Shown: positions 9,551 to 61,210 of the stretch, in pieces | Numbering within the stretch: the stretch's first letter is position 1 | Layout of the letters: the number at the start of each line of letters is the position of its first letter | Assembly: GCA_013388845.1 (NCBI GenBank) | Contig: JACAEN010000016.1 | Coordinates: 21,898 to 85,897, forward strand | Reading direction: 5' to 3' | DNA from: Chloroflexota bacterium | GTDB taxonomy: Bacteria > Chloroflexota > Dehalococcoidia > GIF9 > AB-539-J10 | Length of the DNA stretch: 64,000 nucleotides | Position numbers and translations under genes: made by a program | The notes under the pieces: generated by a model | What the model was told of the DNA's origin: nothing | The model's database searches: none | Seen by the model: only the letters and a program-made list of their open reading frames with translations

Positions 9551-9642
9551 GAGATTGCCACGCCCCGACCCCGATTCATCGGGGGCTCGCAATGACACTC
9601 TCTCGTTTGTCATTGCGAGGAGTGAAGCGACGAAGCAATCTC
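9551..9642. repeat. Inverted doublet of REP-like type I elements (9551-9596 and 9609-9642)
   Basis: gagattgccacg...ctcgcaatgac, a 12-nt spacer, then gtcattgcgagg...gaagcaatctc. The left copy contains ccccgattcatcgggg. The right copy supplies the ATPase stop codon. Confidence 0.88.
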
Positions 9643-10389
9643 ACTTGGTACTGAGATTGGGATTCCGTAAAGCTCACTCAGCACCTCTTCTCGAAGCATG
9701 GACTCCGGGCTGCCTTGCTGCCATATCTTACCGTCCTTCATTAGAATCAGTCGTTGGCAAATAGAGGGCAGCGTTCTCAGGTCATGGGTGACAAATAGAG
9801 TGGTCGTATGATATTCCCTGTGAATGAGCTGTATCAGGCTTAAGATTTCGCGTTGAGCTTTTTGGTCTATTGAAGCTGTCGGCTCATCGAGAAGAAATAT
9901 CTCAGGCTGCTGAACTAAAGCTCGGGCAATGGCTGCCCTTTGGTATTCGCCCCCGGATAGATGCCCTATTGGGCGACCTGATAAATGAGCTATGCCCACC
10001 AGTTCCAATACCTTATCTACCGTTTCCCATTGAGCCCGTGTTGGCCGACGGAATAGTCCCAGGCGACCATAGCAGCCCACCATCACCGTTTCTCTAACAT
10101 TGATGGGCAACCTGGGGTCGATATTTTCCACCTGAGCCACATAGCCTATGCGCCTCCTTAAATTAATGCTATTTCTCCCATTAGGCCGTGACCCTAATAC
10201 CCAGGCTTGTCCATGAACCAGTTTGCCCAAGCCATTAATGACTGTGAGCAAGGTAGTTTTGCCAGCGCCGTTAGGTCCGATAATGCCAATGAATTCTCCT
10301 TTCCTGACCTCCAGAGACACACCCTGTAAAGCCACATCTTCTCGGTAGGACACCACAGCGTCTTGAATCTTGATGACTATATCATCCAT
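9610..10389 (-). CDS. Metal ABC transporter ATP-binding protein (ZnuC/MntA family)
   Basis: Walker A GPNGAGKTT, LSGGEYQR, LLDEPT, H-loop VTHDL. Confidence 0.92.
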   Translation of the reverse strand: MDDIVIKIQDAVVSYREDVALQGVSLEVRKGEFIGIIGPNGAGKTTLLTVINGLGKLVHGQAWVLGSRPNGRNSINLRRRIGYVAQVENIDPRLPINVRETVMVGCYGRLGLFRRPTRAQWETVDKVLELVGIAHLSGRPIGHLSGGEYQRAAIARALVQQPEIFLLDEPTASIDQKAQREILSLIQLIHREYHTTTLFVTHDLRTLPSICQRLILMKDGKIWQQGSPESMLREEVLSELYGIPISVPSEIASSLHSSQ

Positions 10390-11248
10390 GTTGTTCCCTC
10401 CATTCGTTCAGAGCGTCTAGCAGTAGATCAACGTTCTTATCTATTGCCTTTTCCCAAGTTTTGGTGTTCTCTAAGCCGCCCGGGAAGTTGGATATGGTTA
10501 CCTGTATGGCTCCGATATCCTGTGCCATAGTTTCACTCGTCGCCGTGGCACCACTCTGGAGATTATCAATGACCAGAGCTACCCCGGCTCCTCTAGCTTT
10601 ATCTATCAGCTCTTGCACTTGCGCCGGGGTTAAGTCTTCAGGTCTGCCATAGGTAGCCACAACATCGAAGCCAGCCCACCTCACAAATCCTTGTTGCATT
10701 TCCGCGCAGATTACCTTTACCCCCTCTAACCCGGCTCCCTGTAATCTATTTTTTACTTCTTCACCCTTAGCTAAAATAGCTTGTGCCCTATCTGTAGCTC
10801 TCTCGCGATAGTATGCGGCATTTTCTGGGTCTATTTCTCCCAAGATTTGAGCAATCTTGCTTACTGCCTCAGCTTGAACTGAGGGTACCATCCAGTTGCC
10901 TGTAACATTAACAGCCACGATAATAAGGTCGGGGTTTTCTGCCGCCTCAATCGCCCCTTGGACATTTTGAAAATTCGCTTGATAATCGTGGATGAAAAGG
11001 GCTCTGCAACTAGCTAGTGCCACAATATGGCTGGGCTTTATATCATAATGTCCTGGACACACACCGGGTGGTATAAGGGTGCCAGTTTCCAGTTTGCCGT
11101 CCGCTACATCCTGAATAATGTTGGTGATAAGGGAGCTCCCAGTCATGATATCAACTGAGAGTGGACCCTGTTGGGCACGAACCAGAAACACCACAGCAAC
11201 AACCACGATCACTGCCACCAATACGCCTATCAGAATTCTTCTTCTCAT
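10382..11248 (-). CDS. Metal ABC transporter substrate-binding protein (ZnuA/TroA-like)
   Basis: N-terminal anchor, SLITNIIQDVA, LIPPGVCPGHYD. Start placed at MRRRIL. Confidence 0.85.
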   Translation of the reverse strand: MRRRILIGVLVAVIVVVAVVFLVRAQQGPLSVDIMTGSSLITNIIQDVADGKLETGTLIPPGVCPGHYDIKPSHIVALASCRALFIHDYQANFQNVQGAIEAAENPDLIIVAVNVTGNWMVPSVQAEAVSKIAQILGEIDPENAAYYRERATDRAQAILAKGEEVKNRLQGAGLEGVKVICAEMQQGFVRWAGFDVVATYGRPEDLTPAQVQELIDKARGAGVALVIDNLQSGATATSETMAQDIGAIQVTISNFPGGLENTKTWEKAIDKNVDLLLDALNEWREQHG

Positions 11249-11272
11249 AATTCTTTCAGCACTCCATGCATG

Positions 11273-11286
11273 TGCAATTAATTGCA
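11273..11286. promoter_or_regulatory. Candidate Fur-family operator (perfect palindrome)
   Basis: tgcaattaattgca about 25 nt upstream of the substrate-binding protein start. Confidence 0.6.
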
Positions 11287-11302
11287 ATTATCGAGCAAAA
11301 AA

Positions 11303-11488: not shown

Positions 11489-11489
11489 C

Positions 11490-11708: not shown

Positions 11709-11714
11709 ATTTGG

Positions 11715-17127: not shown

Positions 17128-17137
17128 GTTGTTTATA

Positions 17138-18127
17138 TCAGCCCAGTTTGGCCGCTTCCTCTCTAACCAGGCGGCGAATCCTTTTGTGGATTTCCAATGC
17201 AGGCGCTATGTTCTTAGTTCCATCTAGCCAATGAAAATGTTCTCTATCGCCGCTTCCTCCAGTTTTCTCCCTTTCCTCAGCCACCCTTTCCACTGCATGT
17301 CGCCTACCTTTCCCCCATGCTTCCAGAACCACCCATAAATCATACAAGCTTACCGATGCTAGGCCTATGGTGGAATAGGGCAGGACGTATTCATTAGCAT
17401 TGAAAGCAATGGCTAAGCCACCAGCTTTGTTCACAGCTTGAAGCATCTTGAAATCTGTGATGCTGTCTCCTACCGCCGTCCAATAAGAAAGCGGTTTTCC
17501 CATCCTGGTGCTAAACCGCTCCAGTGCCTCTACCTTGCGTCTTCCCCCTACCGGTTTCACCTGACCTATCATTCTTCCCGACCTTGTTTGAGGCAATTTC
17601 TGCCAGTAGAAATAGTCCAGATATTCCCTTATTTTGGTATCGTCAGTAACAGGATTAAGGTTCACAATTTCGCTTTCTGTTTGCTCCAGCAGGGCAAATT
17701 CATCCTGGCTTAATAGTTGACGAATCTGTGCTAGGGGAAAGGAAGTGCAAGTGACATTCTCACTGGGTATCCCCAATCTCTGTGTGACGGGGAAGGCATA
17801 TTGTTCATAACTAGTACTAATACAAAATACGTACCACCCTCGAGATTTGAGTTTGGAGATTAGTTCAGTTGCCCCTGGAGTTAGCCCAGCTTTCTGACCC
17901 ATAGCGGCGATTTGTTCCTCTTCTATTCCATGATAAGCAAGGAAGGGAGTGATGAGAGCAAGTGTGTCTCCGGGTTCATAATCCGGCCGACCTTCTAAAG
18001 TCAGCAAATCATCATAACGGCTAATGACTTCGAAAATTTTGCCGCCGCGGGGGAATAGTTTCATCAATTCATAGGCATTATCCTGAGGAGTTAAGGGTCC
18101 TTCCAGGTCAAAGCAAATCAAGTTCAT
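17138..18127 (-). CDS. HAD-superfamily protein of the archaeal-type COG4030/EhaR-like family
   Basis: CFDLEGPLTPQDNAYE, ISRYDDLL, YEPGDTL, VGDSITDFKML, AFNAN. Confidence 0.75.
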   Translation of the reverse strand: MNLICFDLEGPLTPQDNAYELMKLFPRGGKIFEVISRYDDLLTLEGRPDYEPGDTLALITPFLAYHGIEEEQIAAMGQKAGLTPGATELISKLKSRGWYVFCISTSYEQYAFPVTQRLGIPSENVTCTSFPLAQIRQLLSQDEFALLEQTESEIVNLNPVTDDTKIREYLDYFYWQKLPQTRSGRMIGQVKPVGGRRKVEALERFSTRMGKPLSYWTAVGDSITDFKMLQAVNKAGGLAIAFNANEYVLPYSTIGLASVSLYDLWVVLEAWGKGRRHAVERVAEEREKTGGSGDREHFHWLDGTKNIAPALEIHKRIRRLVREEAAKLG

Positions 18128-18882
18128 CTCAGACTTTTCTTTACCTCCTCGTCCACCTTCCTACTAAGGTCATAACCACTGATTAACTTTCCTTGAGCAT
18201 CAACGACTCTCTTGTCCTTTATGCTGACTTCGCCCCGGCTCAGGGCTTGTAATGTCATGATGATAAGAGGAAATTCTCTAGCAAGTTCGTGCTGGCGAAT
18301 AAGCCGAAACAGCATATCTTTGTTCTCCTTACGCCAATATTCGGCAAAGGGCTCACCTTTAATGGAAAAGAGGCAGTAGCTAACTGCCGGGCCTCTATCC
18401 AGTTCAGGGGTTACCACGTGCATCATTGCTCCGGCGGTATCGGCTCTATGTTGTATCAAAGTCCAGATTACCTCCTGCCAGCTACCTGTAGGTCCGCCGG
18501 GAGGTGCGGGATGAAGATTAATCATATCGTATTTCTGACATAGTTCTTCACTCACGATGAGCATATAGCCAGCAAGGACACAAAGGTCGGGAGCAAATGG
18601 TTCAATCCTCTTGTCTACCTCCCTATCGTATTTGATACGCCACTCTTTTCCCTCCCCGGCAGTCTCAAACTTTTTGTGAGATAAACAGACAAGAGGAATG
18701 TTGTAGCTCCGAACAAGCTCAAAGAACAGGTCGCTTTCCTTAGCCTCGCCAGGTTCTCGGTTGCTAAAAACAAAGCTAATTCTGCCGTTAAGGTCACCCC
18801 TGCGGGTCTTATCCTGCGCAGCTTGCAAAAGCTGTCGGGCAGCTTCATCTCTCCCTGTGGAAAACCAACCAATTTTCAGCAA
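18124..18882 (-). CDS. purN: Phosphoribosylglycinamide formyltransferase-like protein
   Basis: LCVLAGYMLIVS, INLHPAPP, MMHVVTPELDRGP formyltransferase motifs. Confidence 0.8.
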   Translation of the reverse strand: MLKIGWFSTGRDEAARQLLQAAQDKTRRGDLNGRISFVFSNREPGEAKESDLFFELVRSYNIPLVCLSHKKFETAGEGKEWRIKYDREVDKRIEPFAPDLCVLAGYMLIVSEELCQKYDMINLHPAPPGGPTGSWQEVIWTLIQHRADTAGAMMHVVTPELDRGPAVSYCLFSIKGEPFAEYWRKENKDMLFRLIRQHELAREFPLIIMTLQALSRGEVSIKDKRVVDAQGKLISGYDLSRKVDEEVKKSLR

Positions 18883-18909
18883 GAGCTTGCTTTACCTCCC
18901 TTGCCCTCT

Positions 18910-19004
18910 GTCATTCTGAGCCCTTCGCTTATTTCATTGCGAGTCCCGATTTATTGGGACGAAGCAATCTCCTATCGCTCAGGATAGACTCCGCGAAGGA
19001 TCTC
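18910..19004. repeat. Nested REP composite: type I element inside a type II (GTCATTCTGAG...GAAGGATCTC) element
   Basis: Outer halves 18910-18930 and 18975-19004. Inner 18933-18971 has a gtcccgat-tt-attgggac core. Confidence 0.8.
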
Positions 19005-19650
19005 CAAATATATGTTTCCTTACCTTGGCCCACGTGCTGGCAAAATGAGCGAAATAGGTAGATTTTTGCCCGAATATTTTGCCCTGAGCTAAAGAATTTA
19101 GGAAGTCGTCAGGCCTCTCAAAGTCGGGCATTTCCACATATGCTCGACCAATTTCACTCAAAGTATGGGCATCGCTGCCAGCGGCGGCAGCTTTTCCCTG
19201 CTCTTGGGCTAGTTTCCCTGCTCTGGCGTTGCTACTAGAAAATGGTGTCCGAGAATTAAAAGTTTCGATAATATCGACCTGGGATAAGACTTCCGTCGAG
19301 GTTAGAGTATTAGTATTCCAGGGCAGCGACCTGCCGAACGGGTGGGGGATAGCCACCAGACCACCCTGGCTTCGGATTCGAGATATTGTTTCCTGGGGAG
19401 ATAATCCTCGGGGGATTTTTTCACTTAGAAACAGCCCCATTATTTCACCCGCAGGGGTTAAGATCTCCTCAGCAACGATTACTTTAAATGGGGCGGTCTC
19501 TTTTAACTTTAAGGCACCGGCAATGGTGTTGTGGTCGGCTACAGCAATACAATTTATGCCTAGCTCAAGGCAACGCTCGATTATTCGCTCCAAGGGTGTG
19601 AGACAATCTGTAGAATAGCAGGTATGGACATGTAAATCAGCTTTTATCAA
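18979..19650 (-). CDS. PHP domain phosphoesterase
   Basis: DLHVHT, ADHNT, EEI, HPF, GSDAH. Confidence 0.9.
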   Translation of the reverse strand: MIKADLHVHTCYSTDCLTPLERIIERCLELGINCIAVADHNTIAGALKLKETAPFKVIVAEEILTPAGEIMGLFLSEKIPRGLSPQETISRIRSQGGLVAIPHPFGRSLPWNTNTLTSTEVLSQVDIIETFNSRTPFSSSNARAGKLAQEQGKAAAAGSDAHTLSEIGRAYVEMPDFERPDDFLNSLAQGKIFGQKSTYFAHFASTWAKVRKHIFGDPSRSLS

Positions 19651-21873: not shown

Positions 21874-21974
21874 GTCATTGCGAGCCCCGACTTGTCGGGG
21901 CGTGGCAATCTCTATCCCCCTCAGCCAACAAGATTGCTTTATCGCCCCGATTCATCGGGGCTCCTCGCAATGAC
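21874..21974. repeat. Inverted doublet of REP-like type I elements
   Basis: gtcattgcgag-ccccgacttgtcgggg-cgtggcaatctc ... agattgctttatcg-ccccgattcatcgggg-ctcctcgcaatgac. Confidence 0.88.
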
Positions 21975-26002: not shown

Positions 26003-26019
26003 TCCCGATGGAGTCGGGA
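26003..26019. repeat. CCCGA-N-TCGGG short hairpin, intergenic
   Basis: tcccgat-gga-gtcggga. Confidence 0.55.
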
Positions 26020-26036: not shown

Positions 26037-27257
26037 ATGAAAGCGGAAATCATACCTGTTGGCACAGAAATTTTGCTGGGCAATATAGTTGATACTAATT
26101 CCTGCTTCCTAGCCAATCAATTACCTCTGCTGGGAATTGACTTATATTTTATCTCTACAGTGGGCGACAATGAGAAGAGATTAGTCGATACCTTAAAACG
26201 AGCCTGGAGGAGAGCAGACCTTATTATCACCACAGGCGGATTGGGACCTACCGAAGATGATATTACCCGCGAGGCCATTGGCAAACTGGTAGGTGAGGAG
26301 CTGAAAGTTGATGACAAGTTATGGCAAGAATTAAAAGACTGGCTCCGCCGCTACCCTGGGAAAATGCCGCAAAGCAATATGAAACAGGCAACTATCATCC
26401 CTTCGGCTCGAGTAATTCCTAACCGTATGGGGACAGCCCCTGGTTGGTGGGTTGAGAAAGACAACCACATAATTATAGCTCTCCCCGGACCACATGATGA
26501 GATGAAATTGATGTGGCAGGAAGGCGTGTTGCCCAAGCTGGAGCAAAAAGTAACCGGAGAGGTTATCCTATCTAGAGTAATTAAGACTTTTCGACTAGCC
26601 GAAGCTAAGGTAGAGGAACTAGTAGCTCATCTTTCTAAACTATCCAACCCTACTTTGGCTACTTACATCAACCCCGACGGTGTTTATCTACGTATCACAG
26701 CCAAAGCAAAAAACAAAACAGAGGCTCAACGCCTTATTTCCCAAAGCGAAGAACAAATTCAAACCATCCTTTGTCCCTATATTTGGGGGGTAGACGATGA
26801 TACTCTGGACTCAGTTGTTGGGAAGTTGCTCAGAGCTAGAAACTTGAGTCTAGCCACCATGGAATCTTGCACCGAGGGGCTTCTCTGCAGTACTATTGCC
26901 AGTGGTCCGGAAAGCCATACTTATTTCAAGGGCGGATTGCTAGCCTGTTGCAATGAAGCTAAGACAGCTTATGGTGTGGAGACCTCCATTATGGAGCGCT
27001 ACGGCAATGAGAATACCCAGGTAGCTAAGGCCATGGCTGAGACGGCACGCAGGAAATTGAAAACCGATATCGGCCTGAGCGTGGGGGGTAACCTGAATCC
27101 CGATAAAAATTCCGGCGATGCCTTCGTAGGCCTGAGCAGTGATAAATTTGAGCAAACGTTCACCCATATACTCCGCGGAAATCGCTCAAGAATGAAGCAA
27201 AGAGCAGTTTTTGCTGCCCTTTTTGATTTAAGAAATATGTTGCTCGAGGAGGTCTAA
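26037..27257 (+). CDS. cinA: CinA family protein (MoCF/PPase plus NMN deamidase domains)
   Basis: VGTEILLGNIVDTNS, TGGLGPTEDDITRE, GTAPG, ESCT, NEAK. Confidence 0.9.
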   Translation: MKAEIIPVGTEILLGNIVDTNSCFLANQLPLLGIDLYFISTVGDNEKRLVDTLKRAWRRADLIITTGGLGPTEDDITREAIGKLVGEELKVDDKLWQELKDWLRRYPGKMPQSNMKQATIIPSARVIPNRMGTAPGWWVEKDNHIIIALPGPHDEMKLMWQEGVLPKLEQKVTGEVILSRVIKTFRLAEAKVEELVAHLSKLSNPTLATYINPDGVYLRITAKAKNKTEAQRLISQSEEQIQTILCPYIWGVDDDTLDSVVGKLLRARNLSLATMESCTEGLLCSTIASGPESHTYFKGGLLACCNEAKTAYGVETSIMERYGNENTQVAKAMAETARRKLKTDIGLSVGGNLNPDKNSGDAFVGLSSDKFEQTFTHILRGNRSRMKQRAVFAALFDLRNMLLEEV

Positions 27258-27661
27258 TGCACTTAATTATAGATGGCTATTCCAGCAACCAAAAAATTCT
27301 CCGGGACGAAGATTTCCTTCGGAAGTGGTTGGAAAATTATCCCGCCAAGATTGGAATGACCAGGATTTCACCGCCATATGTGATCAAATATATCGGACCA
27401 GTGCTGGAGGATTGGGGGATATCAGGATTTGTTTTCATAGCAGAAAGCCACATTGGCATCCATACCTTTGTTGAACGGAATTACGTTAACATCGATGTTT
27501 TCTCTTGTAAGGATTTTGATACTGAGAAAGCAATAAAAGATTTTCGAGAGGGATTTCAGCTGGCTAAATTGCGAACCTGCCTGATTGACAGAGAATGGCC
27601 CAAAAACTCCGATTTCATCGGAGCAATGGCCAACCCCCAAAGTTTTGTTTACCATGAATGA
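27257..27661 (+). CDS. speD: S-adenosylmethionine decarboxylase proenzyme
   Basis: GISGFVFIAESHIGIHT pyruvoyl site, IDVFSC. Confidence 0.88.
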   Translation: MHLIIDGYSSNQKILRDEDFLRKWLENYPAKIGMTRISPPYVIKYIGPVLEDWGISGFVFIAESHIGIHTFVERNYVNIDVFSCKDFDTEKAIKDFREGFQLAKLRTCLIDREWPKNSDFIGAMANPQSFVYHE

Positions 27662-28577: not shown

Positions 28578-29713
28578 TGAGGGGCAATATAAGTCTAGGC
28601 AAGATCTTCGGTATTCCTCTGCGACTCCATTATACCTGGTTTATCATCTTTGCTCTGGTAACCTCTTCTCTCGTACTTTACCCCTTAGTAGAGCCTCCTT
28701 ACCCTCCTATAGAACAGAGGATAATTTCGGGCATATTAACCAGCCTCCTCTTTTTTGCTTCCATCATTACCCACGAGCTAGCCCACAGCATCTTAGCCAT
28801 TCGTAACAATATCCCGGTTAAAGAAATTACCCTCTTTGTTTTCGGCGGTGTTTCTCAGATAACTAAAGAGGCGACCCACCCCCGAGCAGAACTTTTAATA
28901 GCCATAGTCGGCCCTTTAACCAGCCTGGCCCTAGCCGGTATTTTCTACGGATTGCATCTTTTACTGGCTGGAACCCAGCAAATCCTAGCTGCCAGCTTAA
29001 TGCAATGGCTAGCTTGGATAAATGTGTTTTTAGCTGCATTCAACTTAATCCCCGGTTTTCCCTTAGACGGAGGCAGAATATTCCGTGCCCTTGTCTGGCG
29101 AAAGACTCAGGATTACCACAAGGCAACCCGCATCGCCACCAAGGTGGGGCAGGGGATAGCTTATGCCCTTATCGCCGGAGGCATCGCCCTGATCCTTATC
29201 TTCCGTCTATGGTCTAACGGCATGTGGCTAATATTCATCGGCTGGTTTCTTAGCGATGCAGCCAGAGCTAGCTATCAGCAGATTTTGCTCCGAGATGCCC
29301 TTGCTGGTGTCACAGCACGCCAGGTTACGGATTACGGTTCTCCCTTGATCCCACCCCATATGAATCTAATGGAGCTAGTCCAGCAATATGTATTGCCCAC
29401 AGGACGAACTTGCTTCCTAGTAAGCTGGGGAGCTGAATTAGAAGGCATGGTCACACTGCAGCAGATAAAGAAAGTCCCCCGCACCCGTTGGGCAATTACT
29501 TCTGTGCAGGATATCATGACCCCCGCCAGCAAATTAAAGGTAGCCTATGCCGACGAGGATCTCTTGAGTGTGCTCCAAGACATGAACGGTGAAAGTGCCG
29601 AGCACATACCAGTAATAGAAGCCGGGAATGTTGTTGGAATAATAAACCGAGAGGATATAGCTCGCTTCCTTCGCACCCGAGCCGAGTTCGGGGCAAGTTC
29701 AACGCCTAGATAG
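28574..29713 (+). CDS. Site-2 protease (M50) with CBS domains
   Basis: HELAH, NLIPGFPLDGG, C-terminal CBS pair. Confidence 0.92.
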   Translation: MMRGNISLGKIFGIPLRLHYTWFIIFALVTSSLVLYPLVEPPYPPIEQRIISGILTSLLFFASIITHELAHSILAIRNNIPVKEITLFVFGGVSQITKEATHPRAELLIAIVGPLTSLALAGIFYGLHLLLAGTQQILAASLMQWLAWINVFLAAFNLIPGFPLDGGRIFRALVWRKTQDYHKATRIATKVGQGIAYALIAGGIALILIFRLWSNGMWLIFIGWFLSDAARASYQQILLRDALAGVTARQVTDYGSPLIPPHMNLMELVQQYVLPTGRTCFLVSWGAELEGMVTLQQIKKVPRTRWAITSVQDIMTPASKLKVAYADEDLLSVLQDMNGESAEHIPVIEAGNVVGIINREDIARFLRTRAEFGASSTPR

Positions 29714-32229: not shown

Positions 32230-32304
32230 TCCCCGGTAGCTCAATGGTAGAGTGGGCGGCTGTTAACCGCTTGGTTGCAGGTTCGAGTCCTGCCCGGGGA
32301 GCCA
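32230..32304 (+). tRNA. tRNA-Asn(GTT)
   Basis: TCCCCGG acceptor, loop CT-GTT-AA, CCA. Confidence 0.96.
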
Positions 32305-32326
32305 GGTTCAGACTTGTGACTTGCCA

Positions 32327-32584
32327 ATGGATAAAACTTTGTACTTCGTCTATGTCCTGCGAAATCCTCAAGGTCGATTGTACGTGGGCTTTACCACCGA
32401 CTTAGAGAGGCGTGTCCGTCAACATCAGGAAGGCGAGGGTGGCTGGACTCATAGCCGTGGTCCATGGGAGTTAGTTCACTTTGAGGGCTTCACCACGCGG
32501 GCAGAGGCTCTGCGGCGAGAGCGTAATTCGAAGCGTGGTAAAACAAACCAAGAACTTCGGGAGCGTTTTAGCGGAGTTAGGTAG
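32327..32584 (+). CDS. Stand-alone GIY-YIG nuclease (85 aa), linked to tRNA-Asn
   Basis: VYVL...LYVGFTTDLERRVRQH...EALRRE. Stop codon lies in the D-loop of the downstream tRNA copy. Confidence 0.9.
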   Translation: MDKTLYFVYVLRNPQGRLYVGFTTDLERRVRQHQEGEGGWTHSRGPWELVHFEGFTTRAEALRRERNSKRGKTNQELRERFSGVR

Positions 32585-32658
32585 AGTGGGTCCTTCTGTA
32601 GAAGGATTAACCGCTTGGTTGCAGGTTCTCCTTCCAAAGAAAGGACTGCCCGAGGAGC
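32569..32658 (+). pseudogene. Degenerate tRNA-Asn copy with two hairpin substitutions
   Basis: ggtagagtggg-[tccttctgtagaagga]-ttaaccgcttggttgcaggttc-[tccttccaaagaaagga]-ctgcccgaggagc aligns to tRNA-Asn 32230-32304. Confidence 0.88.
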
Positions 32659-32807
32659 TTGGAATTCACCCAAGGCTTTCATAATCACTCCTCGGGAAAA
32701 TTGTCCTCATTCGTCTCCTGTTTGCTTGACAGTGTGGGGGGTGATATAGTACAAGTTATGATTTGAGTGAGACTCAAGAAATTAGCGCCAGAAAGGGAGC
32801 GAGCAAA

Positions 32808-35823: not shown

Positions 35824-36072
35824 ATGTTTTATGCATATATTCTTCAAAGTGAGACAGGTAATCGATATTACATTGGTTCTACAAAGGATCTATCTCGTAG
35901 AGTAATTGAGCATAATCGAGGAAAAAGCAACTCAACAAAGCCTTATCGTCCCTGGAAGCTGGTGTATTGCGAGTGTTTTCAAACTCTGGCCGAAGCCAGA
36001 CAAAGAGAACAAGAGATTAAATCGTGGAAAAGTCACGAATATCTGAGAAAAACGCTTGGATTGAACGCTTAA
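35824..36072 (+). CDS. Stand-alone GIY-YIG nuclease, copy 1 (82 aa)
   Basis: FYAYILQS...YYIGSTKDLSRRVIEHN...PWKLVY.E.F....EARQREQEIK. Confidence 0.92.
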   Translation: MFYAYILQSETGNRYYIGSTKDLSRRVIEHNRGKSNSTKPYRPWKLVYCECFQTLAEARQREQEIKSWKSHEYLRKTLGLNA

Positions 36073-36131
36073 TCAGGCAGAGCGTCCCGATTGCATCGGG
36101 GAGGTCAGGGGTTCGAATCCCCTCAGCTCCA
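36057..36131 (+). pseudogene. Degenerate tRNA-Ala copy 1 with rewritten anticodon stem
   Basis: D-arm gctt-aatcaggca-gagc, arm tcccg-attgcat-cgggg, T-arm and 3' acceptor identical to tRNA-Ala. Confidence 0.85.
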
Positions 36132-36142: not shown

Positions 36143-36375
36143 ATGTTTTATACATATATCCTTCAAAGTGAGACAAGTAATCGATATTACATTGGTTCTA
36201 CAAAGGATCCATCCCGTAGAGTAATTGAGCATAATCGAGGAAAAAGCAACTCAACAAAGCCTTATCGTCCCTGGAAGCTGGTGTATTGCGAGTGTTTTCA
36301 AACTCTGGCCGAAGCCAGACAAAGGGAGCAAGAGATTAAATCGTGGAAAAGTCACGAATATCTGAGAAAAACGCT

Positions 36376-36391
<16 letters not shown>
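36143..36391 (+). CDS. Stand-alone GIY-YIG nuclease, copy 2 (82 aa)
   Basis: Near-identical to copy 1 (A4T, G12S, L23P). Confidence 0.92.
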
Positions 36392-36453
<62 letters not shown>

Positions 36454-42014: not shown

Positions 42015-42901
42015 AATTCTCCAAGTTACAAGGCACAGGCAATGATTTCATCTTGGTTGACGCCAGAACCACGGAAAGGGAATGGTCAAAGCTGGCTCGA
42101 GTTACGTGTGACCGTCACTTTGGAGTAGGAGCCGACGGCTTGATACTAGTGCAGGACTCGACCATCGCTGATTTAAAGATGCGTATTTTTAATTCCGATG
42201 GTTCTGAGGCTGAGGTTTCCGGCAATGGGCTGAGATGTTTTGCTAAGTATGCTATTGAGAAGGGCTTGGCTGGCAAAATATCATCGCCAGCAGAGTCCCG
42301 ATTGCATCGGGACAATCGCTCTCTGACCGTAGAAACTTTGTCAGGCGTAAGAAAGGTTAAAGCTTATATGTCAGGAGATAAGGTCAACCGAGTCGAGGTA
42401 GGTATGGGTCTGCCTCAGTTTCAGCCGCAGCAAATCCCTGTTAAAGTTGACATCCCGATTGCATCGGGACCAATATTAGATTATCGTTTAATAATAGACG
42501 GAAAAGAGTTGACCTTATCTATTCTATCCATGGGTAATCCCCACGCCGTGAGCTTCTCATCGCAACCGGTTGCTGATTTTCCTTTAACTGAAATAGGACC
42601 AAAAGTGGAGAGGCACCCTGTGTTCCCCAAAAAGACCAATTTTGAGATAGCCAGAGTCTTGAACAGGGGAAAGATAGAAGCCAGGGTGTGGGAGCGAGGT
42701 GTTGGAGAAACTCTGGCCTGTGGAAGCGGCGCTTGCGCCATAGCTGTGGCTGCTCAGTTATTAGACCACGTGGATGAACAAGTTGACATAATACTCGAAG
42801 GTGGGACTCTGACCGTATCCTGGGATAGGGTAGGGGAGGTGTTGCTTACCGGTCCCGTGGAGGAAGTTTTCACTGGCGAATGGCCTGGAGGAAAGAGCTG
42901 A
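42011..42901 (+). CDS. dapF: Diaminopimelate epimerase
   Basis: GTGNDF, DRHFGVGADG, NSDGSEAEVSGNG, MGNPH, ERGVGETLACGSG. Confidence 0.94.
   Translation: MKFSKLQGTGNDFILVDARTTEREWSKLARVTCDRHFGVGADGLILVQDSTIADLKMRIFNSDGSEAEVSGNGLRCFAKYAIEKGLAGKISSPAESRLHRDNRSLTVETLSGVRKVKAYMSGDKVNRVEVGMGLPQFQPQQIPVKVDIPIASGPILDYRLIIDGKELTLSILSMGNPHAVSFSSQPVADFPLTEIGPKVERHPVFPKKTNFEIARVLNRGKIEARVWERGVGETLACGSGACAIAVAAQLLDHVDEQVDIILEGGTLTVSWDRVGEVLLTGPVEEVFTGEWPGGKS
42295..42313. repeat. CCCGATTGCATCGGG hairpin in frame in dapF (SRLHRD)
   Basis: gtcccgattgcatcgggac. The 15-nt core is identical to the pseudo-tRNA-Ala anticodon arm. Confidence 0.8.
42452..42470. repeat. Second CCCGATTGCATCGGG hairpin in dapF (IPIASG)
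   Basis: atcccgattgcatcgggac, read in a different frame from the first copy. Confidence 0.8.
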
Positions 42902-47836: not shown

Positions 47837-48775
47837 ATGCTACCGCATGTTGATGATTTTTTACTAAATCTACAAGCCAATAAATACTCTTCGGAGACAA
47901 TTTATAACTATGAACGGGATTTAAATGTTTTCAGTAATTTCTTAGATGAAAGCAATATCGAGTTTGCTAAGGTTGATAAACGCGCTATCACCTACTATAA
48001 AGCCTATTTGGTTTCGCGTGACCGCAAAACAGCCAAGCTGACGAAGCAAGGCGAAAAACTTCTTGATTCCCGCTCTATAAACCGCATGCTCTCGGCGCTG
48101 AGAGCTTACTTGCGCTACTTAATTGACATTGATTACCCCTGTCCCCTGCCGCCTGAAGCAGTGAAATTAACCAAAGCTGGGAGAAAACATCCCCAAGTAG
48201 CCGAGCTTGAGGATTTAATCAGACTGATTGAAGCGCCAAGCTCCTTAGAGGCAAATATCAAAACAGCTTTAAGGAACCGTGCCATGCTGGAAGTGCTATT
48301 TGCTACTGGCATGCGCATCTCTGAGCTCTGCAATCTAAATCGCAGTCAAATCGACGATACCGGGCGGATTTTTATTACTGGTAAAGGCAGAAAACAACGC
48401 TTCGTTTACTTAACTCCACGAGCTAAACAGCACCTGGATGCGTATTTAGCAACTCGACAGGATGATTGTCCAGCCCTTTTTATCCCCTATGCCGGTCGAA
48501 ATGTTGCCAAATCAAAGAAAAGGATTTCCACTAATTATCTTCAGGATAGAATTAAGAGATACCGTGAGAAATTAAAGATCAACGTCCCTACTTCAGCACA
48601 CTCCCTGAGACACGGTTTTGCCACTTATCTGGCTGAACAAGGTGCTAATCCGGCAGCTCTGCAAATTCTTCTGGGTCATGAATCCTTGGATACCACCACC
48701 CGCTATGTCCATGCCTCCGATAAGTATGCTGAAGAGACTCACCGCAAATACCATCCCTTAGCTAAACCAGATTAA
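47837..48775 (+). CDS. Tyrosine recombinase (XerC/XerD-like)
   Basis: N-terminal SAM-like domain. Catalytic R (TGMRISE), K (GKG), HSLRH, LGH, Y (TTTRY) all present. Confidence 0.92.
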   Translation: MLPHVDDFLLNLQANKYSSETIYNYERDLNVFSNFLDESNIEFAKVDKRAITYYKAYLVSRDRKTAKLTKQGEKLLDSRSINRMLSALRAYLRYLIDIDYPCPLPPEAVKLTKAGRKHPQVAELEDLIRLIEAPSSLEANIKTALRNRAMLEVLFATGMRISELCNLNRSQIDDTGRIFITGKGRKQRFVYLTPRAKQHLDAYLATRQDDCPALFIPYAGRNVAKSKKRISTNYLQDRIKRYREKLKINVPTSAHSLRHGFATYLAEQGANPAALQILLGHESLDTTTRYVHASDKYAEETHRKYHPLAKPD

Positions 48776-51870: not shown

Positions 51871-52278
51871 CGGGCAAGCAAACCTGTAAGCCGAGTTCTG
51901 TCCCCCGACCGAGTCGGGGTGGTGACCATCCATCTAGCCCCGATGTTACCATCGAGGTCAAGCGACCAACCCGAGGGCTTCGGCCGAGCGCCTTAGACTC
52001 ACCCCAGAGTCTTGAGACTTTGGAGCAGTTGAGCCCTCTTATTCGGTCTTGCTCCGGGTGGGGTTTGCCCAGCCAGCCAGTTTCCTGGTTGCTGGTGAGC
52101 TCTTGCCTCACCATTTCACCCTTACCCGCACCCCGATGCCATCAGGGCCGCTGGCGGTATGTTTCTGTGGCACTTTCCGTAGGGTCTCCCCTCCTGGGTA
52201 TTACCCAGCACCCTGCTCGGTAGAGCTCGGACTTTCCTCCCCGATTGTATCGGGGCGGTCACCCGGTTTACTTGCCCG
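51871..52278 (-). ncRNA. rnpB: RNase P RNA (type A)
   Basis: GAGGAAAGTCCGAGCTC, GAAAGTGCCACAGAAA, ACAGAACTCGGCTTAC. P1 cgggcaagtaaacc/ggtttgcttgcccg. Confidence 0.96.
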
Positions 52279-53565: not shown

Positions 53566-53656
53566 GGAGGGGTGACCGAGTGGCTTATGGTGGCGGTCTT
53601 GAAAACCGCTCCCCGACAAAGTCGGGGCGTGGGTTCGAATCCCACCCCCTCCGCCA
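53566..53656 (+). tRNA. tRNA-Ser(TGA)
   Basis: GCGGT-CT-TGA-AA-ACCGC, variable arm ccccgac-aaa-gtcgggg, CCA. Confidence 0.96.
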
Positions 53657-55491: not shown

Positions 55492-57066
55492 ATGGCTGAT
55501 GAATCTGACAAAGATCTGAAGAAAACTGAAGAACTAATGGAAGAACTGAAGAGAAAACGAGAACACATCTTGCAAATGGGAGGACCAAAGGCGATTGAAG
55601 AGCGCCATAAGAAAGGGCAGATGTCAGCTCGGGAGAGGATAGAATATTTCTTTGACTCCGGCACATTCACGGAAATAGGTTTGTTCGTTAAGCATAGAAC
55701 GACTGCGTTTGGCATGAGTAAAAGGGAGGTGCCTGCTGAAGGAGTAATCACTGGCTTCGGCAAAGTGAATGGCCGGTACGTTGTGGTTGCGGCTGAAGAT
55801 TACACGGCAATGGCGGGAACCTTTGGCGAATATCATGGTAAGAAATTTGTTCGTGCTATAGAGTTCGCTAAGGATAACGGATGGCCATTTATAGGCATGA
55901 ATGACTCCGGAGGTGCTCGACTGCAAGAAGGAATTGATACCTTGGAAGCCTACGGATGGCTTTTCAGAGCTCAAATACTGGCGTCAGGGATAATACCCCA
56001 GATAGCCCTGCTTATGGGCCCTTGTCTCGGGGGACAGGCATATCATCCTATAATGCAAGATTTCCTCATTCAAACCAAGCACACAGGATTTATGGGTATT
56101 GCTGGCCCGGCTTTTGTCAAAACTCAAACCGGCGAGGAAATATCCCTGGAGGAACTTTCTGGCTACAAAGCTCATGCCATCAAATCCGGACAAACACACA
56201 TCGTGGCTGAAGATGATGCCGATTGCCTAGATAAGTGCAAGGAACTTTTATCCTTTTTGCCTTCCAGCAACCGTGAGAAACCGCCTCGCATCCCAACGGA
56301 TGATGACCCAGAAAGGAAAGAGGATTTGCTTAGCTTGATGCCCGAACATCCTTATGAACCTTTCGATATGTACGAAGTCATCACAAAAATAGTTGACCAG
56401 GGTTATTTCTTTGAGACCTTGGGACTCCACGCTCGCAATATAATCACAGGTTTTGCTCGCTTCAACGGGCGTCCTGTGGGAATAGTAGCCAACCAACCAA
56501 AGTGGATGGCTGGTTGCTTAGATATTGATGCGTCCGACAAAGCAGCTAGGTTTATCAGGTTTTGCGACCTGTTCAACATCCCCCTGCTCACTCTGCAGGA
56601 TTGCCCGGGGTATCTGATAGGTTCTCAGCAAGATTGGGGTGGAATCCTGCGCCATGGCGCTAAGCTACTTTTTGCCTGGGCTGATGCCACCGTGCCCCTG
56701 ATTTCCATCATACTTAGAAAATCCTATGCTGGCGCTCATTATGGCATGCTGGACAAATCTATTGGTGCTGATTTCGTCTTCGCCTGGCCTACCGCCCGAA
56801 TTACCATTGTCGGCGCCGAAACTGCTGCCAGTGTTATCTTCGCCAAGGAAATAAAGGAGGCAGACAAGCCTGATGAAATGCGAGAAAAAAGGATAAAGGA
56901 ATATTCGGAGCTCTACGAAAATCCTTACCGCGCTGCTGAGAGAGGTTATGTCGACGATGTAATAGACCCTGCGGATACCAGAAAATTCATAAACAAGGCA
57001 TTGGATAGTCTAGAGAATAAGTGTGTGGTCAGGCCTTGGAGGAAGTATTCCAACATCAATCTCTAA
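55492..57066 (+). CDS. Acyl-CoA carboxylase/decarboxylase carboxyltransferase subunit (PccB/MmdA family)
   Basis: MSARERI, DSGGARLQEG, KAARFIRFCD, GILRHGAKLL. Confidence 0.9.
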   Translation: MADESDKDLKKTEELMEELKRKREHILQMGGPKAIEERHKKGQMSARERIEYFFDSGTFTEIGLFVKHRTTAFGMSKREVPAEGVITGFGKVNGRYVVVAAEDYTAMAGTFGEYHGKKFVRAIEFAKDNGWPFIGMNDSGGARLQEGIDTLEAYGWLFRAQILASGIIPQIALLMGPCLGGQAYHPIMQDFLIQTKHTGFMGIAGPAFVKTQTGEEISLEELSGYKAHAIKSGQTHIVAEDDADCLDKCKELLSFLPSSNREKPPRIPTDDDPERKEDLLSLMPEHPYEPFDMYEVITKIVDQGYFFETLGLHARNIITGFARFNGRPVGIVANQPKWMAGCLDIDASDKAARFIRFCDLFNIPLLTLQDCPGYLIGSQQDWGGILRHGAKLLFAWADATVPLISIILRKSYAGAHYGMLDKSIGADFVFAWPTARITIVGAETAASVIFAKEIKEADKPDEMREKRIKEYSELYENPYRAAERGYVDDVIDPADTRKFINKALDSLENKCVVRPWRKYSNINL

Positions 57067-57082
57067 GAAAGGAGAAGGAAAG

Positions 57083-58240
57083 ATGGATTTCAGCTTCACA
57101 GAAGAGCAGAACAGGTTTAGACAGGAGGTACGCAACTTTTTAGAGGACGAGATAAAGAAAGGGTATTGGGAACCTGCTTGTGACGCCTGGATACAAGGCT
57201 TTGACCCAGGATTTACCAAACGAGTGGCGCAGCGGGGCTGGATAGGTCTGACCTGGCCCAAAGAGTATGGCGGGCAAGGGCGTAGTTATGTAGACCGGCT
57301 CATACTCACCGAGGAAATGCTGAGATACGGGGCACCAGCAGCTTGTCACTGGTTTGCCGACCGCCAGATAGGTGGCTCTATTGCCGCCTTTGGCACTGAG
57401 GAGCAAAAGAAGGAGTTATTACCTAAGATTATAAGAGGGGAAGCTTATATTGGTCTGGGAATGAGCGAACCAGGAGCTGGCTCTGACTTAGCCTCATTGC
57501 AAACTAGAGCTATTGAAGACGGAGACAGCTATATAATTAATGGACAAAAGACATGGACCAGTGGTGGCTCGTTTGTAAATTATTTCTACCTATTAGCTAG
57601 AACTGACCCCGAGGCACCTAAACACAGAGGCATTAGCGAATTCATTATTCCCGCAGATTTACCTGGGATTAAACGCATCCCCATGATAGATATTACTGGT
57701 ACTGAAGCTTGGAACGATGTCTTTTTTGACGAAGTACGCGTCCCCAGGACATGTTTGATAGGGGAGAAAAACCGTGGTTTCCTGCAAGCCCTCCAACAGC
57801 TTGATTATGAGAGAAGCGGGATGGAGCGACTCATGGGCAACTATCCCCTCTTTGAAGCCCTTATACAGTTTACCAAAGAGCATAAATTGTCCCAAGAACC
57901 TGTAATTCGCAATAAGCTAGCTCAGCTCCAGATTGAATTTGAAGTTGGGCGGCTACTTATTTATCGGGTGGCGTTGGTCATGGACGAGGGACGGGCTCCC
58001 AATCGGGAAGCAGCCATGTCCAAAGCATATTCCACCGCGTTTGAACAACGGTTAGCCAACACCGCTATGGAAATACTCGGGCCTTATGGGCAACTGCTCG
58101 GCGACTCTAAACTAGCTCCTATTCGAGGGCTAGCAGTGTATTCCTACCTGGGTTCCAAGGGTTATAGCCTCCAGGCAGGTACATCTGAGATACTAAAGAA
58201 TATCCTGGCTACCAGGGGACTGGGCTTACCAGCCTCGTAA
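57083..58240 (+). CDS. Acyl-CoA dehydrogenase, catalytic-type subunit
   Basis: GMSEPGAGSDL, INGQKTWTS, LDYERSG, AGTSEILKNI. Confidence 0.92.
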   Translation: MDFSFTEEQNRFRQEVRNFLEDEIKKGYWEPACDAWIQGFDPGFTKRVAQRGWIGLTWPKEYGGQGRSYVDRLILTEEMLRYGAPAACHWFADRQIGGSIAAFGTEEQKKELLPKIIRGEAYIGLGMSEPGAGSDLASLQTRAIEDGDSYIINGQKTWTSGGSFVNYFYLLARTDPEAPKHRGISEFIIPADLPGIKRIPMIDITGTEAWNDVFFDEVRVPRTCLIGEKNRGFLQALQQLDYERSGMERLMGNYPLFEALIQFTKEHKLSQEPVIRNKLAQLQIEFEVGRLLIYRVALVMDEGRAPNREAAMSKAYSTAFEQRLANTAMEILGPYGQLLGDSKLAPIRGLAVYSYLGSKGYSLQAGTSEILKNILATRGLGLPAS

Positions 58241-59454: not shown

Positions 59455-59501
59455 CCATCTATTGGACAGTGAACTTACTAAGGCCTTGGCACAAGTCAGG
59501 A

Positions 59502-60131
59502 TTAGCCGAGATCGTCAAGCTTCGTTTCTAATTTCTTTTGCCCTAGGGCTACTGTTAAATCCCCTCGAGTCCTTTCTATAATGCCTCGCACGGCGTCTGT
59601 GGTTCGCCTCAAGCCATGAGCGAGCAATTCCGGGAAGTCCATAGTTATCAATATTCCGTAGATTTCATCCATTATGGTCAGCAGCTCTTCGCAACGGGAA
59701 AAATCCCCTCGCCTCAGACTATCTAATATATACCTCCGCAATTCTCCTACAGACTCGCCCAAACCATCTAGATAGGCGGTATTGCTTACTCCCAGCGTTT
59801 CTGGCTTAGGCAAGTCCTCCCCAGCAATCAAAGCTAAGGTTATATAGCCTTCAGCTAACTCCTTTTGAGCATCGTGAATAAAACCTGAATGAAGTAGCCT
59901 GCCATGTTCAGCCAGATCGTGGTTTAGCTCTCGAAGTAATTCATGAGCTGAACCAAGGAGTTGCCTTGCCTTATCATGCTCCTGGCGATGCACAGCACGT
60001 ATGGCATCAGCGCTATGGCGGATTACCTGACGGCAACTACGCAAAGCTTTCTCCCGAGCTTCATCCTCAGCCACGAATTGGGGGCGAAGCTCCGCAGCAA
60101 TAGCCTCTAAATCTTCTACAGGTTTTGACAT
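59502..60131 (-). CDS. Translin/TRAX-like protein
   Basis: EAREKAL...AIRAVH, QKELAEG, YLDGLGESVGELRR, LRRTTD. Confidence 0.75.
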   Translation of the reverse strand: MSKPVEDLEAIAAELRPQFVAEDEAREKALRSCRQVIRHSADAIRAVHRQEHDKARQLLGSAHELLRELNHDLAEHGRLLHSGFIHDAQKELAEGYITLALIAGEDLPKPETLGVSNTAYLDGLGESVGELRRYILDSLRRGDFSRCEELLTIMDEIYGILITMDFPELLAHGLRRTTDAVRGIIERTRGDLTVALGQKKLETKLDDLG

Positions 60132-61210
60132 TCTCCCTTTGCCAAGTCCATTTTTGCAATCAATTTCTGCACAGCTTCCCTAACATCTTCCCCGCCCAGA
60201 ACAGCGCTAATTACAGCTACAGCATCAGCACCCGCAGACACCACTTCACCAATATTGCTCTGATTGATGCCACCAATAGCTACCACAGGGATTGATACAC
60301 TGCCTTTGAGCTCCTTAATCCTATCCACACCAACCACAGTAGCCTCCCTTTTTGTTGCCGTGGGAAATATAGAGCCCACAGCAACATAATCGGCTCCTTC
60401 TCTTTGAGCTTTCTTGCCTTGGGACAGCGTCGTGACCGAGCAGCCAACTATTTTATCTATGGGCAATTCCCTGCGGATTACCGGCAAGGGCAGATCCTCC
60501 TGTCCAACGTGAAGCCCATCAGCATCGACAGCCATAGCTAAGTCGAGGTAATCATTTATTATAAATAGAACGCCTGCTTGACTACAGAGAGCTTTGAGCT
60601 TTTGCGCTACAAGTAACAATTCCCCTTTTTTGTCCCGATAAAATCGGGACTTATCGCGAAGCTGAATTACCCCGGCACCTCCCTCAATAATTTGGCCAGC
60701 AATGACCAGCTCATCCCTGCCAGCTAAAAATTGCCTATCCAGAATAACGTAAAGCCCAGTCATCCTCTCCATTTTGTCCCGACGTGATATTCTGGAAACT
60801 AAATCTCGCTCCAAGGTATAAAGGGCAAACCTCATCTGCTGGAAGCTGGCTGAATTCAGTATTGAACTTATCTCTGGCAGTTTAGCTAGCTCTTCTATTA
60901 CACGAAGGGACTCTTCCACTCTTTTAGCATTGGCTGTAACCAGGCCCGAGAGGTCCCGCGCAGACTGCTCCGCTTCTGACTCGTAGCTAGCGCCTGTACG
61001 AGCGCCGACATCACGTTCGGAATCTCTGTGAGATAAGAGCCCTATGTTCAACGATTTAGTCTCCCGGGCTAAATCATGGCGTAGAGTTTTTAACCGCTGG
61101 CTCAGTTCAGCATCGTTGAGCAGAAAGCGAGCGACATCTTCCAGAACTCGCAGGCCTTCACTGGAGCGGTTCAGATTGGCATCAATCACACGCAACAGTT
61201 GATGAGACAC
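60116..61210 (-). CDS. thiE: Thiamine-phosphate synthase with N-terminal extension (ThiD2-like)
   Basis: RVIDANLNRSSEGLRVLED N-domain, IQLRDK, INDY, HVGQEDL, GSIFPT, AIGGI. Confidence 0.9.
   Translation of the reverse strand: MSHQLLRVIDANLNRSSEGLRVLEDVARFLLNDAELSQRLKTLRHDLARETKSLNIGLLSHRDSERDVGARTGASYESEAEQSARDLSGLVTANAKRVEESLRVIEELAKLPEISSILNSASFQQMRFALYTLERDLVSRISRRDKMERMTGLYVILDRQFLAGRDELVIAGQIIEGGAGVIQLRDKSRFYRDKKGELLLVAQKLKALCSQAGVLFIINDYLDLAMAVDADGLHVGQEDLPLPVIRRELPIDKIVGCSVTTLSQGKKAQREGADYVAVGSIFPTATKREATVVGVDRIKELKGSVSIPVVAIGGINQSNIGEVVSAGADAVAVISAVLGGEDVREAVQKLIAKMDLAKGECQNL
60632..60650. repeat. CCCGA-N-TCGGG hairpin in frame in thiE (SRFYRD)
   Basis: gtcccgat-aaa-atcgggac. Confidence 0.75.

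Follow-up and report, generated by a model that had tools for sequence, protein, structure and literature searches.

A short DNA hairpin in RNA and protein genes of a Chloroflexota bacterium of the class Dehalococcoidia: probable spread as a self-propagating repeat

A 64-kb stretch of the genome of a Chloroflexota bacterium (Dehalococcoidia, GIF9; assembly GCA_013388845.1, contig JACAEN010000016.1, positions 21,898 to 85,897), hereafter the window, was analysed for a short hairpin with a fixed stem and a variable loop that recurs in protein genes, structural RNA genes, spacers and longer palindromic units. The motif CCCGA-N3-7-TCGGG occurs 13 times in the window (exact starts at 9570, 21886, 21946, 26004, 29676, 36086, 36405, 42297, 42454, 51904, 52240, 53612 and 60634). 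Sequences shuffled by dinucleotides (100 in all) have 0.21 copies on average and at most 2, and the pentamer counts predict 0.30. Of the 5-bp hairpins with loops of 3-7 nt, 291 kinds are present in the window, and none comes near this one in frequency. An earlier note on this DNA had called for a comparison with chance, which the motif exceeds in these counts (13 versus 0.2-0.3), and all the copies that it listed exist, within 1-2 nt, the flanking pair having been counted there. Inspection of the flanks gave the full unit as YCCCGAY-N2-3-RTCGGGR, a stem of 7 bp with a 2-3-nt loop. In this strict form the window has 12 copies, versus none in 300 Markov simulations. The hairpins are 15-19 bases long, have DNA folding energies of -6.4 to -7.6 kcal/mol and fall into two subtypes: a T-A subtype, often GTCCCGAT-N3-ATCGGGAC, and a C-G subtype, CCCCGAC-N3-GTCGGGG. 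Variants at 18944-18959 (TCCCGATTTATTGGGA) and 27607-27623 (CTCCGATTTCATCGGAG) are each one change away from the hairpin. The copies lie in or beside the following features, of which the units at the left of the window resemble repetitive extragenic palindromic (REP) elements.

9569..9584, no strand assigned: CCCCGATTCATCGGGG, hairpin apex of a REP-like unit at 9551-9594 (minus-strand orientation)
18935..18971, plus strand: REP-like unit CATTGCGAG-TCCCGATTTATTGGGA-CGAAGCAATCTC, with the one-change hairpin variant (18944-18959) as its apex
21876..21912, plus strand: REP-like unit with a C-G hairpin (21885-21900); an identical unit is present in L195 and L205
21931..21972, minus strand: REP-like unit with a T-A hairpin (21945-21960)
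26003..26019, no strand assigned: TCCCGATGGAGTCGGGA, intergenic copy in the thiC/cinA spacer
27607..27623, no strand assigned: CTCCGATTTCATCGGAG, variant with a compensated C-G to T-A change, in the tail of open reading frame (ORF) 27257-27661
29676..29692, no strand assigned: CCCGAGCCGAGTTCGGG, at the end of an M50/CBS protease gene, lacking the sixth and seventh pairs and with a 7-nt loop
35739..35813, plus strand: resident tRNA-Ala(UGC), the cassette target, with its own anticodon arm CCTGCTTTGCAAGCAGG
35824..36131, plus strand: cassette copy 1, with GIY-YIG ORF 35824-36072 (82 aa), tRNA-Ala look-alike 36058-36131 and hairpin 36085-36101
36143..36450, plus strand: cassette copy 2, with GIY-YIG ORF 36143-36391, tRNA look-alike 36377-36450 and hairpin 36404-36420
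42287..42328, plus strand: dapF site 1, a 42-nt in-frame insertion with hairpin 42296-42312 (read SRLHRD)
42453..42469, plus strand: dapF site 2, the exact 15-mer (read IPIASG)
51871-52274, minus strand: RNase P RNA (292.7 bits)
51903..51919, minus strand: RNase P helix at the P19 position, CCCCGACUCGGUCGGGG
52131..52147, minus strand: RNase P P12 tip, CCCUGAUGGCAUCGGGG, with one wobble change
52239..52255, minus strand: RNase P P3, CCCCGAUACAAUCGGGG
53610..53627, plus strand: variable arm of tRNA-Ser(UGA), TCCCCGACAAAGTCGGGG
60632..60649, minus strand: thiE, TCCCGATTTTATCGGGA(C), read SRFYRD

The copy at 29676 is probably a chance match. The variant at 27607 nearly matches CTCCGATTCATCGGAG, the tRNA-Ser arm of a related locus (L161), the loop of which is one base shorter.

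Relatives were compared with the window via orthologous loci (L numbers) and metagenome runs, run X4 among them. Syntenic tRNA-Ser, RNase P and thiE genes are present in 80 metagenome loci that surround relatives of the adjacent carboxyltransferase gene (82-96% identical as proteins). Outside the variable arm the tRNA-Ser gene is essentially invariant in about 50 loci, and the 18-nt arm itself comes as two unrelated alleles of equal length with no intermediates. The empty arm, TTTCGCCTTTTTGGCGAA, is found in about 36 loci, the most distant included, and the filled arm, TCCCCGACTTTGTCGGGG, in L095-097 and L101-104, while the window carries the filled arm with its loop inverted (AAA versus TTT). 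A filled allele with one decayed pair is present in L127 and L130, and a related CTCCGA variant in L161. The filled arm and its 3' flank (cCCCGACTTTGTCGGGgcgtgg) resemble the core and 3' flank of the REP-like unit at 21876 (cCCCGACTTGTCGGGgcgtgg), agreeing at 21 of 22 nt with one loop base different, and the CGTGG common to both is already present in the empty tRNA. Such a match would be the expected product of a template switch with microhomology at the stem base.

The RNase P RNA gene differs between relatives in the same discrete way at three helix tips. Empty and filled alleles are CCCUGGAUUUAAUCUGCCAGGG (a long P3) versus CCCCGAUAUAAUCGGGG at P3, CUGGCUUAGCCAG versus CCCCGAUAGCAUCGGGG at P12, where the hairpin is perfect in L152, and ACUCCAUGUGGAGU, present in many relatives, versus CCCCGACGCAGUCGGGG at P19. 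Between L095 and L105, 34 of 56 columns differ in these three tips and 8 of 304 elsewhere. On its plus strand the P3 hairpin is identical to the cassette hairpin at 14 of 15 positions. The copies at 51903 and 52239 had been recognised in the earlier note, which missed the third, at the P12 tip. Empty alleles show slow compensatory substitutions along the gene tree; filled alleles have a near-constant stem and highly variable loops. Gradual compensatory evolution of RNA stems was considered and rejected, as it fits the empty alleles and the filled ones arise at once. With their hairpins, the RNase P and tRNA-Ser genes are still scored as full length. The helices of RNase P RNA also vary discretely in a second way, in that a 34-nt helix segment, UCAACUGCUCCAAAGUCUCAAGACUCUGGGGUGAG (51998-52032, minus strand), is present in the window and many relatives and cleanly missing in L090, L095-098, L101-104 and L123.

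For the protein genes, the closest genome in the species collection (L001) is collinear with the window over 8.8 kb, its DapF is 77% identical, and it has no hairpin copy in 20.8 kb; the stretch of its contig covered here shows no synteny to the part of the window that holds RNase P and tRNA-Ser. The insertion at dapF site 1 is missing from L001. The earlier note had taken this site for a bare hairpin, but it is a 42-nt insertion, about the length of a whole REP-like unit, and it keeps GAG before and C..AATC.C after the hairpin. At dapF site 2 the exact 15-mer stands for AAT of L001, between the flanks GTTGACAT and ACCAATA, with a net gain of 12 nt. The cassette 15-mer is thus present unchanged at two places in dapF, each time read in another frame, and with those in the cassettes the exact 15-mer is found four times. 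Both sites lie in length-variable columns of the DapF alignment. A relative of about 90% identity in run X4 keeps both copies, and its site-1 loop (GTA versus TGC in the window) corresponds to a loop inversion plus one transition. At codon 70 of dapF (42218-42220) the window has Ser (TCC) in place of the first catalytic Cys found in 11 of 11 other aligned DapF proteins (VCGNG to VSGNG); given this change and the two hairpin insertions, the window DapF may be impaired or altered in function.

In thiE the empty allele AAG|CAAAG|C contrasts with the filled AAG|TCCCGATTTTATCGGGA|C, again a net gain of 12 nt, and the filled allele reads SRFYRD versus QS in relatives. Three separate clades, represented by the window, L095 and L123, have a perfect palindrome, which is decayed in L084, L122, L127, L130, L136, L137, L146 and L162. 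The gains of 42 and 12 nt in dapF and of 12 nt in thiE are all in frame and at indel-variable alignment positions. At thiE, dapF site 2 and tRNA-Ser there is none of the target-site duplication that the earlier note proposed to look for; instead 3-18 nt of target are replaced, and in the coding loops 3-5 nt give way to 15-17 nt. Filled and empty sites in orthologues, also anticipated in the earlier note, were found at tRNA-Ser, P3, P12, P19, thiE and both dapF sites, and its proposal that the hairpin inserts into or overwrites existing sequence at tolerated places agrees with relatives that differ there between near-identical flanks.

A further stem in a coding sequence, at 8805-8821 of L101, was examined as an insertion and rejected, two point changes having given the stem without an indel. 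It lies in the orthologue of window position ~57290 (ORF 57023-58240), where K to E and A to S replacements turned CCCAAGATTATAGCGGG into CCCGAGATTATATCGGG; L104 holds a one-step intermediate, and L101 belongs to a hairpin-rich lineage. Synteny with L001 ends at a XerC/D-type tyrosine recombinase gene (47837-48775), of which L001 has two in tandem (17131-19603).

The strict motif is restricted to few lineages. In the 80 related loci (949 kb) it occurs 31 times, and all 31 copies lie in 12 loci (201 kb); none was found in the 748 kb of the 68 equally related loci, in 344 kb of other Dehalococcoidia loci or in 982 kb of other phyla. On the carboxyltransferase gene tree the filled states are scattered, and within one shallow clade the sites are filled stepwise, from none (L099) through P19 only (L100) and P12 with P19 (L098) to all four RNA sites (L101, L103 and L104) and the four RNA sites with thiE (L095). 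The polarity of change is clear for tRNA-Ser, thiE and dapF. Recombination between strains certainly contributes to the mosaic.

Outside genes, the hairpin belongs to a REP-like family of ~40-nt palindromic units with the form GTCATTGCGAG-hairpin-CGWRGCAATCTC. The window has seven GTCATTGCGAG...GCAATCTC units, each of them between genes, and in four of the seven the hairpin forms the apex; many further units were found in relatives and in 22 other contigs. The family thus consists of 20-40-nt imperfect palindromes present in many copies, mainly between genes. Viral-labelled IMG/VR contigs were scanned with the composite CATTGCGAG-N-CCCGA-N3-7-TCGGG, which retrieved 22 contigs of 49-62% G+C, some of their units being identical to those of the window. 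The architecture is the same in 22 of 22: tGTCATTGCGAG, then the hairpin in either subtype, then CG(AA/TG/CG)GCAATCTC. Since the composite recurs in all of these contigs, the hairpin is the native apex of a widespread REP-like subfamily and not a later coloniser of REP cores, which reverses the relation put forward in the earlier note. This subfamily is a likely source of the dispersed copies.

Several other repeats were encountered in these surveys. An IMG/VR scan for GTCCCGAT-N3-ATCGGGAC returned 27 loci, near a rough chance estimate for which the collection size was assumed; about ten are unrelated GTCCCG iteron arrays, and only L171, L188, L189 and L195 are relevant. In the arrays (L173-L176, L179-L181, L185, L187 and L193) the 19-mer forms the centre of GTCCCG/CGGGAC repeats that look like those of origins or operators; a relation to the hairpin family is improbable. 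In L095, L096, L105 and L118 the REP-like family has another nested apex, CACCTGAAAGGTG before CGTGGCAATC, as well as plain GAGCAGCAGCGACGAA cores, and inverted doublets are frequent. In the unit at 9551-9594 a T-A hairpin, CCCCGATGAATCGGGG, runs straight into TCGGGGCGTGGCAATC, a C-G unit's 3' arm with its flank, and the unit looks like one hairpin written over the 5' arm and loop of another.

The second setting is the cassette, a 319-nt unit behind the real tRNA-Ala(UGC) in which the hairpin serves as the anticodon arm of the tRNA look-alike. The 82-aa GIY-YIG protein has a Pfam match to PF01541 only, no NCBIfam family above cut-off, and the UPF0213 proteins 1zg2 and 1ywl as its nearest PDB entries. 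Its homologues were traced to contigs, where each lies directly after a tRNA gene and before a copy of a tRNA in which a perfect hairpin takes the place of the anticodon arm:

L164: protein identity 77%, tRNA-Ala(CGC), hairpin arm TCCCGATTATATCGGGA
L165/166: identity 78%, tRNA-Ala(UGC), syntenic with the window, arm TCCCGGTTACATCGGGA
L168: identity 65%, tRNA-Ala(GGC), arm CCCCGATGTAATCGGGG, with a decayed copy in the T-loop
L169: identity 61%, tRNA-Ala(GGC), arm TCCCGATTGGCATCGGGA
L167: identity 62%, tRNA-Pro, arm TCCCGTCTTGAAACGGGA

The window also has a tRNA-Asn cassette, with a nuclease that is 41% identical and TCCTTC...GAAGGA hairpins. Taken together, these homologues indicate that the stem is a conserved part of the cassette and co-varies with the nuclease lineage. 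Both tRNA-Ala cassettes of the window, L164, L165/166, L168 and L169 have the hairpin beside a single-domain GIY-YIG gene of ~80-100 aa. The link to such genes drawn in the earlier note is strengthened by the four other metagenomic contexts that share the stem (L164, L165/166, L168 and L169); as a cause of spread it is unproven. The more distant L167 cassette and the tRNA-Asn cassette carry other hairpins, of which there are no dispersed copies. Nor do the 20-kb loci from relatives rich in hairpins, or the contigs with REP-like units, hold a GIY-YIG gene. That the nuclease drives the spread is suggested by co-occurrence only.

As regards the cassettes themselves, the tRNA-Asn cassette (32230-32660) encodes an 85-aa paralogue and a tRNA copy patched by two TCCTTC-type hairpins. 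The syntenic L166 (205-395) is without it, tRNA-Asn being followed directly by the acpP region, and represents an empty site. L165/166 has one tRNA-Ala cassette versus two in tandem in the window.

These observations are best accounted for, in our view, if the hairpin YCCCGAY-N2-3-RTCGGGR is a self-propagating DNA repeat that is written over hairpin tips and into coding loops, a reading that we consider probable. Its enrichment is restricted to particular lineages, filled and empty alleles are discrete with conserved flanks, and copies in genes are identical to those in the cassettes and REP-like units. Judged by the exact 15-mers, the shared flanks and this identity, the hairpin is copied and not convergent. 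It has two home contexts, the apex of a ~40-nt REP-like element and the substituted anticodon arm of cassette tRNA copies, and in RNA genes it replaces whole hairpins at their base. Loops invert, as seen twice (at tRNA-Ser and at dapF site 1 of the ~90% relative), and whether stems are perfect or decayed differs between lineages.

Copying would probably proceed by replication- or repair-associated template switching, or by short-patch conversion between extruded hairpins, and a few bases of microhomology at the stem base may assist it. In one Dehalococcoidia group the hairpin, sometimes with a few flanking bases, would thereby overwrite the tips of P3, P12, P19 and the tRNA-Ser arm, and copies would enter loop-coding parts of dapF and thiE in frame, adding 12 or 42 nt. 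Selection would retain only copies at tolerant places that are neutral for frame or structure, after which loops may invert and mutate, and stems remain perfect or decay by lineage.

A number of points weigh against this reading. Only the 64-kb window of this genome was examined, no mechanistic scar or target duplication is visible, and no copying event was directly observed. The P12 and P19 loops show three-base differences between near-identical strains, which simple copying leaves unexplained, and the same two sites are also filled in the most distant relatives (L152-L155), so that polarity there is uncertain. Whatever the lineage, a given site always has the same subtype, with either a T-A or a C-G closing pair, which fits one origin per site better than repeated hits, and recombination among strains could explain much of the mosaic. 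In addition, the look-alike loops keep the anticodon of the target tRNA (TGC in both window copies, GGC in L169), a hint at a different process in which stems are rewritten around a retained loop. Together with the loop differences at P12 and P19, the constant subtype of each site and the two-substitution stem of L101, the kept anticodons hint that stems may sometimes be rewritten around a loop already there, or that sequences close to the canonical stem are pulled towards it.

Among the alternatives, nuclease-driven micro-homing survives best, though we regard it as doubtful. Here the 82-aa GIY-YIG protein would recognise the hairpin, or single-stranded DNA (ssDNA) tips, and nick, repair would copy the cassette or REP hairpin, and the cassette would be the engine. 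Homologous GIY-YIG genes in five contexts, at three tRNA-Ala isoacceptors, have the same stem ~12-13 nt past their stop codon; the dapF copies are the exact cassette 15-mer, and the site-1 variant of run X4 equals the L168 cassette hairpin. Cassette lineages differ in their hairpins (CCCGAT, CCCGT, CCTTC), as cognate pairs of nuclease and site would. Single-domain GIY-YIG proteins of the Ssn system can be hairpin-specific ssDNA nucleases, and GTCCCGAT-N3-ATCGGGAC has 3' of its palindrome the C described there as critical for Ssn binding (PMC11893778). However, no GIY-YIG gene was found in 20 kb around each of the hairpin-rich relatives or in REP-bearing contigs, the L167 and tRNA-Asn cassette hairpins are not dispersed, C-G-type copies have no cassette counterpart in the window, and the nearest solved structures are UPF0213 proteins, membership of the Ssn clade being putative. 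The fuller proposal, that the nuclease and a cognate 17-19-nt hairpin form a micro-homing system that attacks ssDNA hairpin tips and uses tRNA genes as landing pads, repair putting the cognate hairpin in place of the tips and so spreading it through structural RNAs, REPs and coding loops, is a little more doubtful again. If it were true, no smaller mobile element that targets a structure would be known, the unit being under 20 bases, and the helices of essential RNAs would be rewritten by a new route.

It is unlikely that whole ~40-nt REP units were inserted, as REPs or as miniature inverted-repeat transposable elements (MITEs), by a RAYT-type or other transposase and then eroded in genes to the surviving apical hairpin. 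The 42-nt insertion at dapF site 1 has REP length, with GAG before and C..AATC.C after, and the hairpin is the native REP apex, as such an origin would predict. But flanks at thiE, dapF site 2 and tRNA-Ser are conserved right up to the hairpin, replacements of equal length or a gain of 12 nt leave no room for eroded arms, the RNA sites are whole-hairpin swaps at the stem base, and no transposase was found among the 38 ORFs scanned, all in the window.

A functional motif under selection, in which a host factor binds the stem as DNA or RNA and sites gained it independently, seems more improbable still. Perfect stems across lineages that are 7-9% different elsewhere in RNase P, a thiE palindrome perfect in three clades at about 80% gene identity, and the L101 stem made by two point substitutions in a conserved coding sequence would all suit it. 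Against these stand copies in two reading frames, on both gene strands, in spacers and in REPs, discrete alleles with up to 12 simultaneous changes and no intermediates, the many close relatives (most of them) without the stem, and copies that decay freely in several lineages. Chance in the native G+C-rich stems of a hot-spring organism has next to no probability: P3, P12, P19 and the tRNA-Ser arm are native helix positions and 29676 looks like chance, but 12 copies versus 0 simulated, exact 15-mers, the same 7-bp stem at four RNA helices and empty alleles in syntenic relatives stand against it, and the counts already refute it.

Returning to the reading of a self-propagating repeat, the hairpin shares features with several known systems, and literature searches found no description of the phenomenon. 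REPs are extragenic by definition, and REPINs are 100-nt doublets moved by RAYT transposases (PMC3116915; PMC3733652). Like them and like 'tagged' palindromic repeats, the repeat is short, imperfectly palindromic, highly repeated and lineage-restricted, with units often in inverted pairs (PMC3116915; PMC3733652), and the composite GTCATTGCGAG-hairpin-GCAATCTC behaves as a REP; unlike them, its 15-19-nt apex stands alone inside RNA and protein genes. No RAYT (IS200/IS605-like) transposase was found among the 38 window ORFs scanned. It also differs from MITEs, which have terminal inverted repeats and a target-site duplication, in that thiE, dapF site 2 and tRNA-Ser show no duplication.

In the NTS/dRS3/SRM-Ssn system of Chenal et al. 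(2025), a 94-aa single-domain GIY-YIG ssDNA nuclease goes with a repeat that has a CCCG stem between GTCATT...AATC flanks and a C just past its palindrome (PMC11893778). Our system resembles it in form, with such oriented flanks, a CCCG-type stem and following C, and a neighbouring single-domain GIY-YIG gene of 80-95 aa. It differs in that our cassettes are embedded in tRNA genes and not flanked by SRMs, and in that the portion of that account considered here reports no NTS or SRM in essential genes or structural RNAs (PMC11893778). The published SRM pattern, HGTCWYN(0-2)YYVSBRHN(0-5)WNVSBRGN(0-2)RNCYNB, has 0 matches on both strands of the window versus 0.27 in simulations, and the long REP as an SRM was rejected accordingly.

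Rickettsia palindromic elements (Ogata et al. 2000) reportedly measure 100-150 bp and add 30-50 residues. Our hairpin likewise enters protein genes in frame and RNA genes at tolerated sites, but its units, of 15-19 nt (42 nt at dapF site 1), are five to ten times shorter, and their effect is a gain of 4 or 14 residues or the exchange of a helix tip for one just as large. The small dispersed repeats of cyanobacteria (Elhai et al. 2008) are said to be ~20-27 nt long with a palindromic core, nested in other repeats, and reportedly differ in presence or absence between related genomes; they are the closest size class, phylum and sequence differ, and they have no known link to GIY-YIG cassettes. 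In hairpin-associated small inversions and quasi-palindrome template switching (chloroplast loop inversions; Ripley/Lovett), loops flip and arms are kept complementary. This is the loop behaviour seen at tRNA-Ser and dapF site 1, but such events act within one hairpin and leave the same stem at many sites unexplained. SegB of phage T4 is a free-standing GIY-YIG homing endonuclease in a tRNA gene cluster (PMC2330249). As in our cassettes a GIY-YIG gene stands among tRNA genes, and it is preferentially inherited; in contrast, SegB is larger, has a DNA-binding part, cuts double-stranded DNA and has no dispersed hairpin (PMC2330249). Overall, the behaviour of the hairpin is that of a repeat derived from REPs, and like a Rickettsia palindromic element it enters genes where this is tolerated.

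If the hairpin is such a repeat, this would be an unusually small-scale spread of selfish DNA into essential genes, tying together REP-like repeats, tRNA-embedded GIY-YIG cassettes and in-gene hairpins. In practical terms, such hairpins can mislead alignments, the annotation of tRNA and RNase P genes and strain phylogenies. Clean natural pairs of filled and empty sites for a mobile unit of 12-19 nt make the copying mechanism testable, be it template switching or priming by a nuclease. Among closely related strains, a selfish hairpin would be able to take the place of entire peripheral helices in RNase P RNA and of the long tRNA-Ser arm, and the usual covariation models would take RNA structural variation from this source for slow compensatory change.

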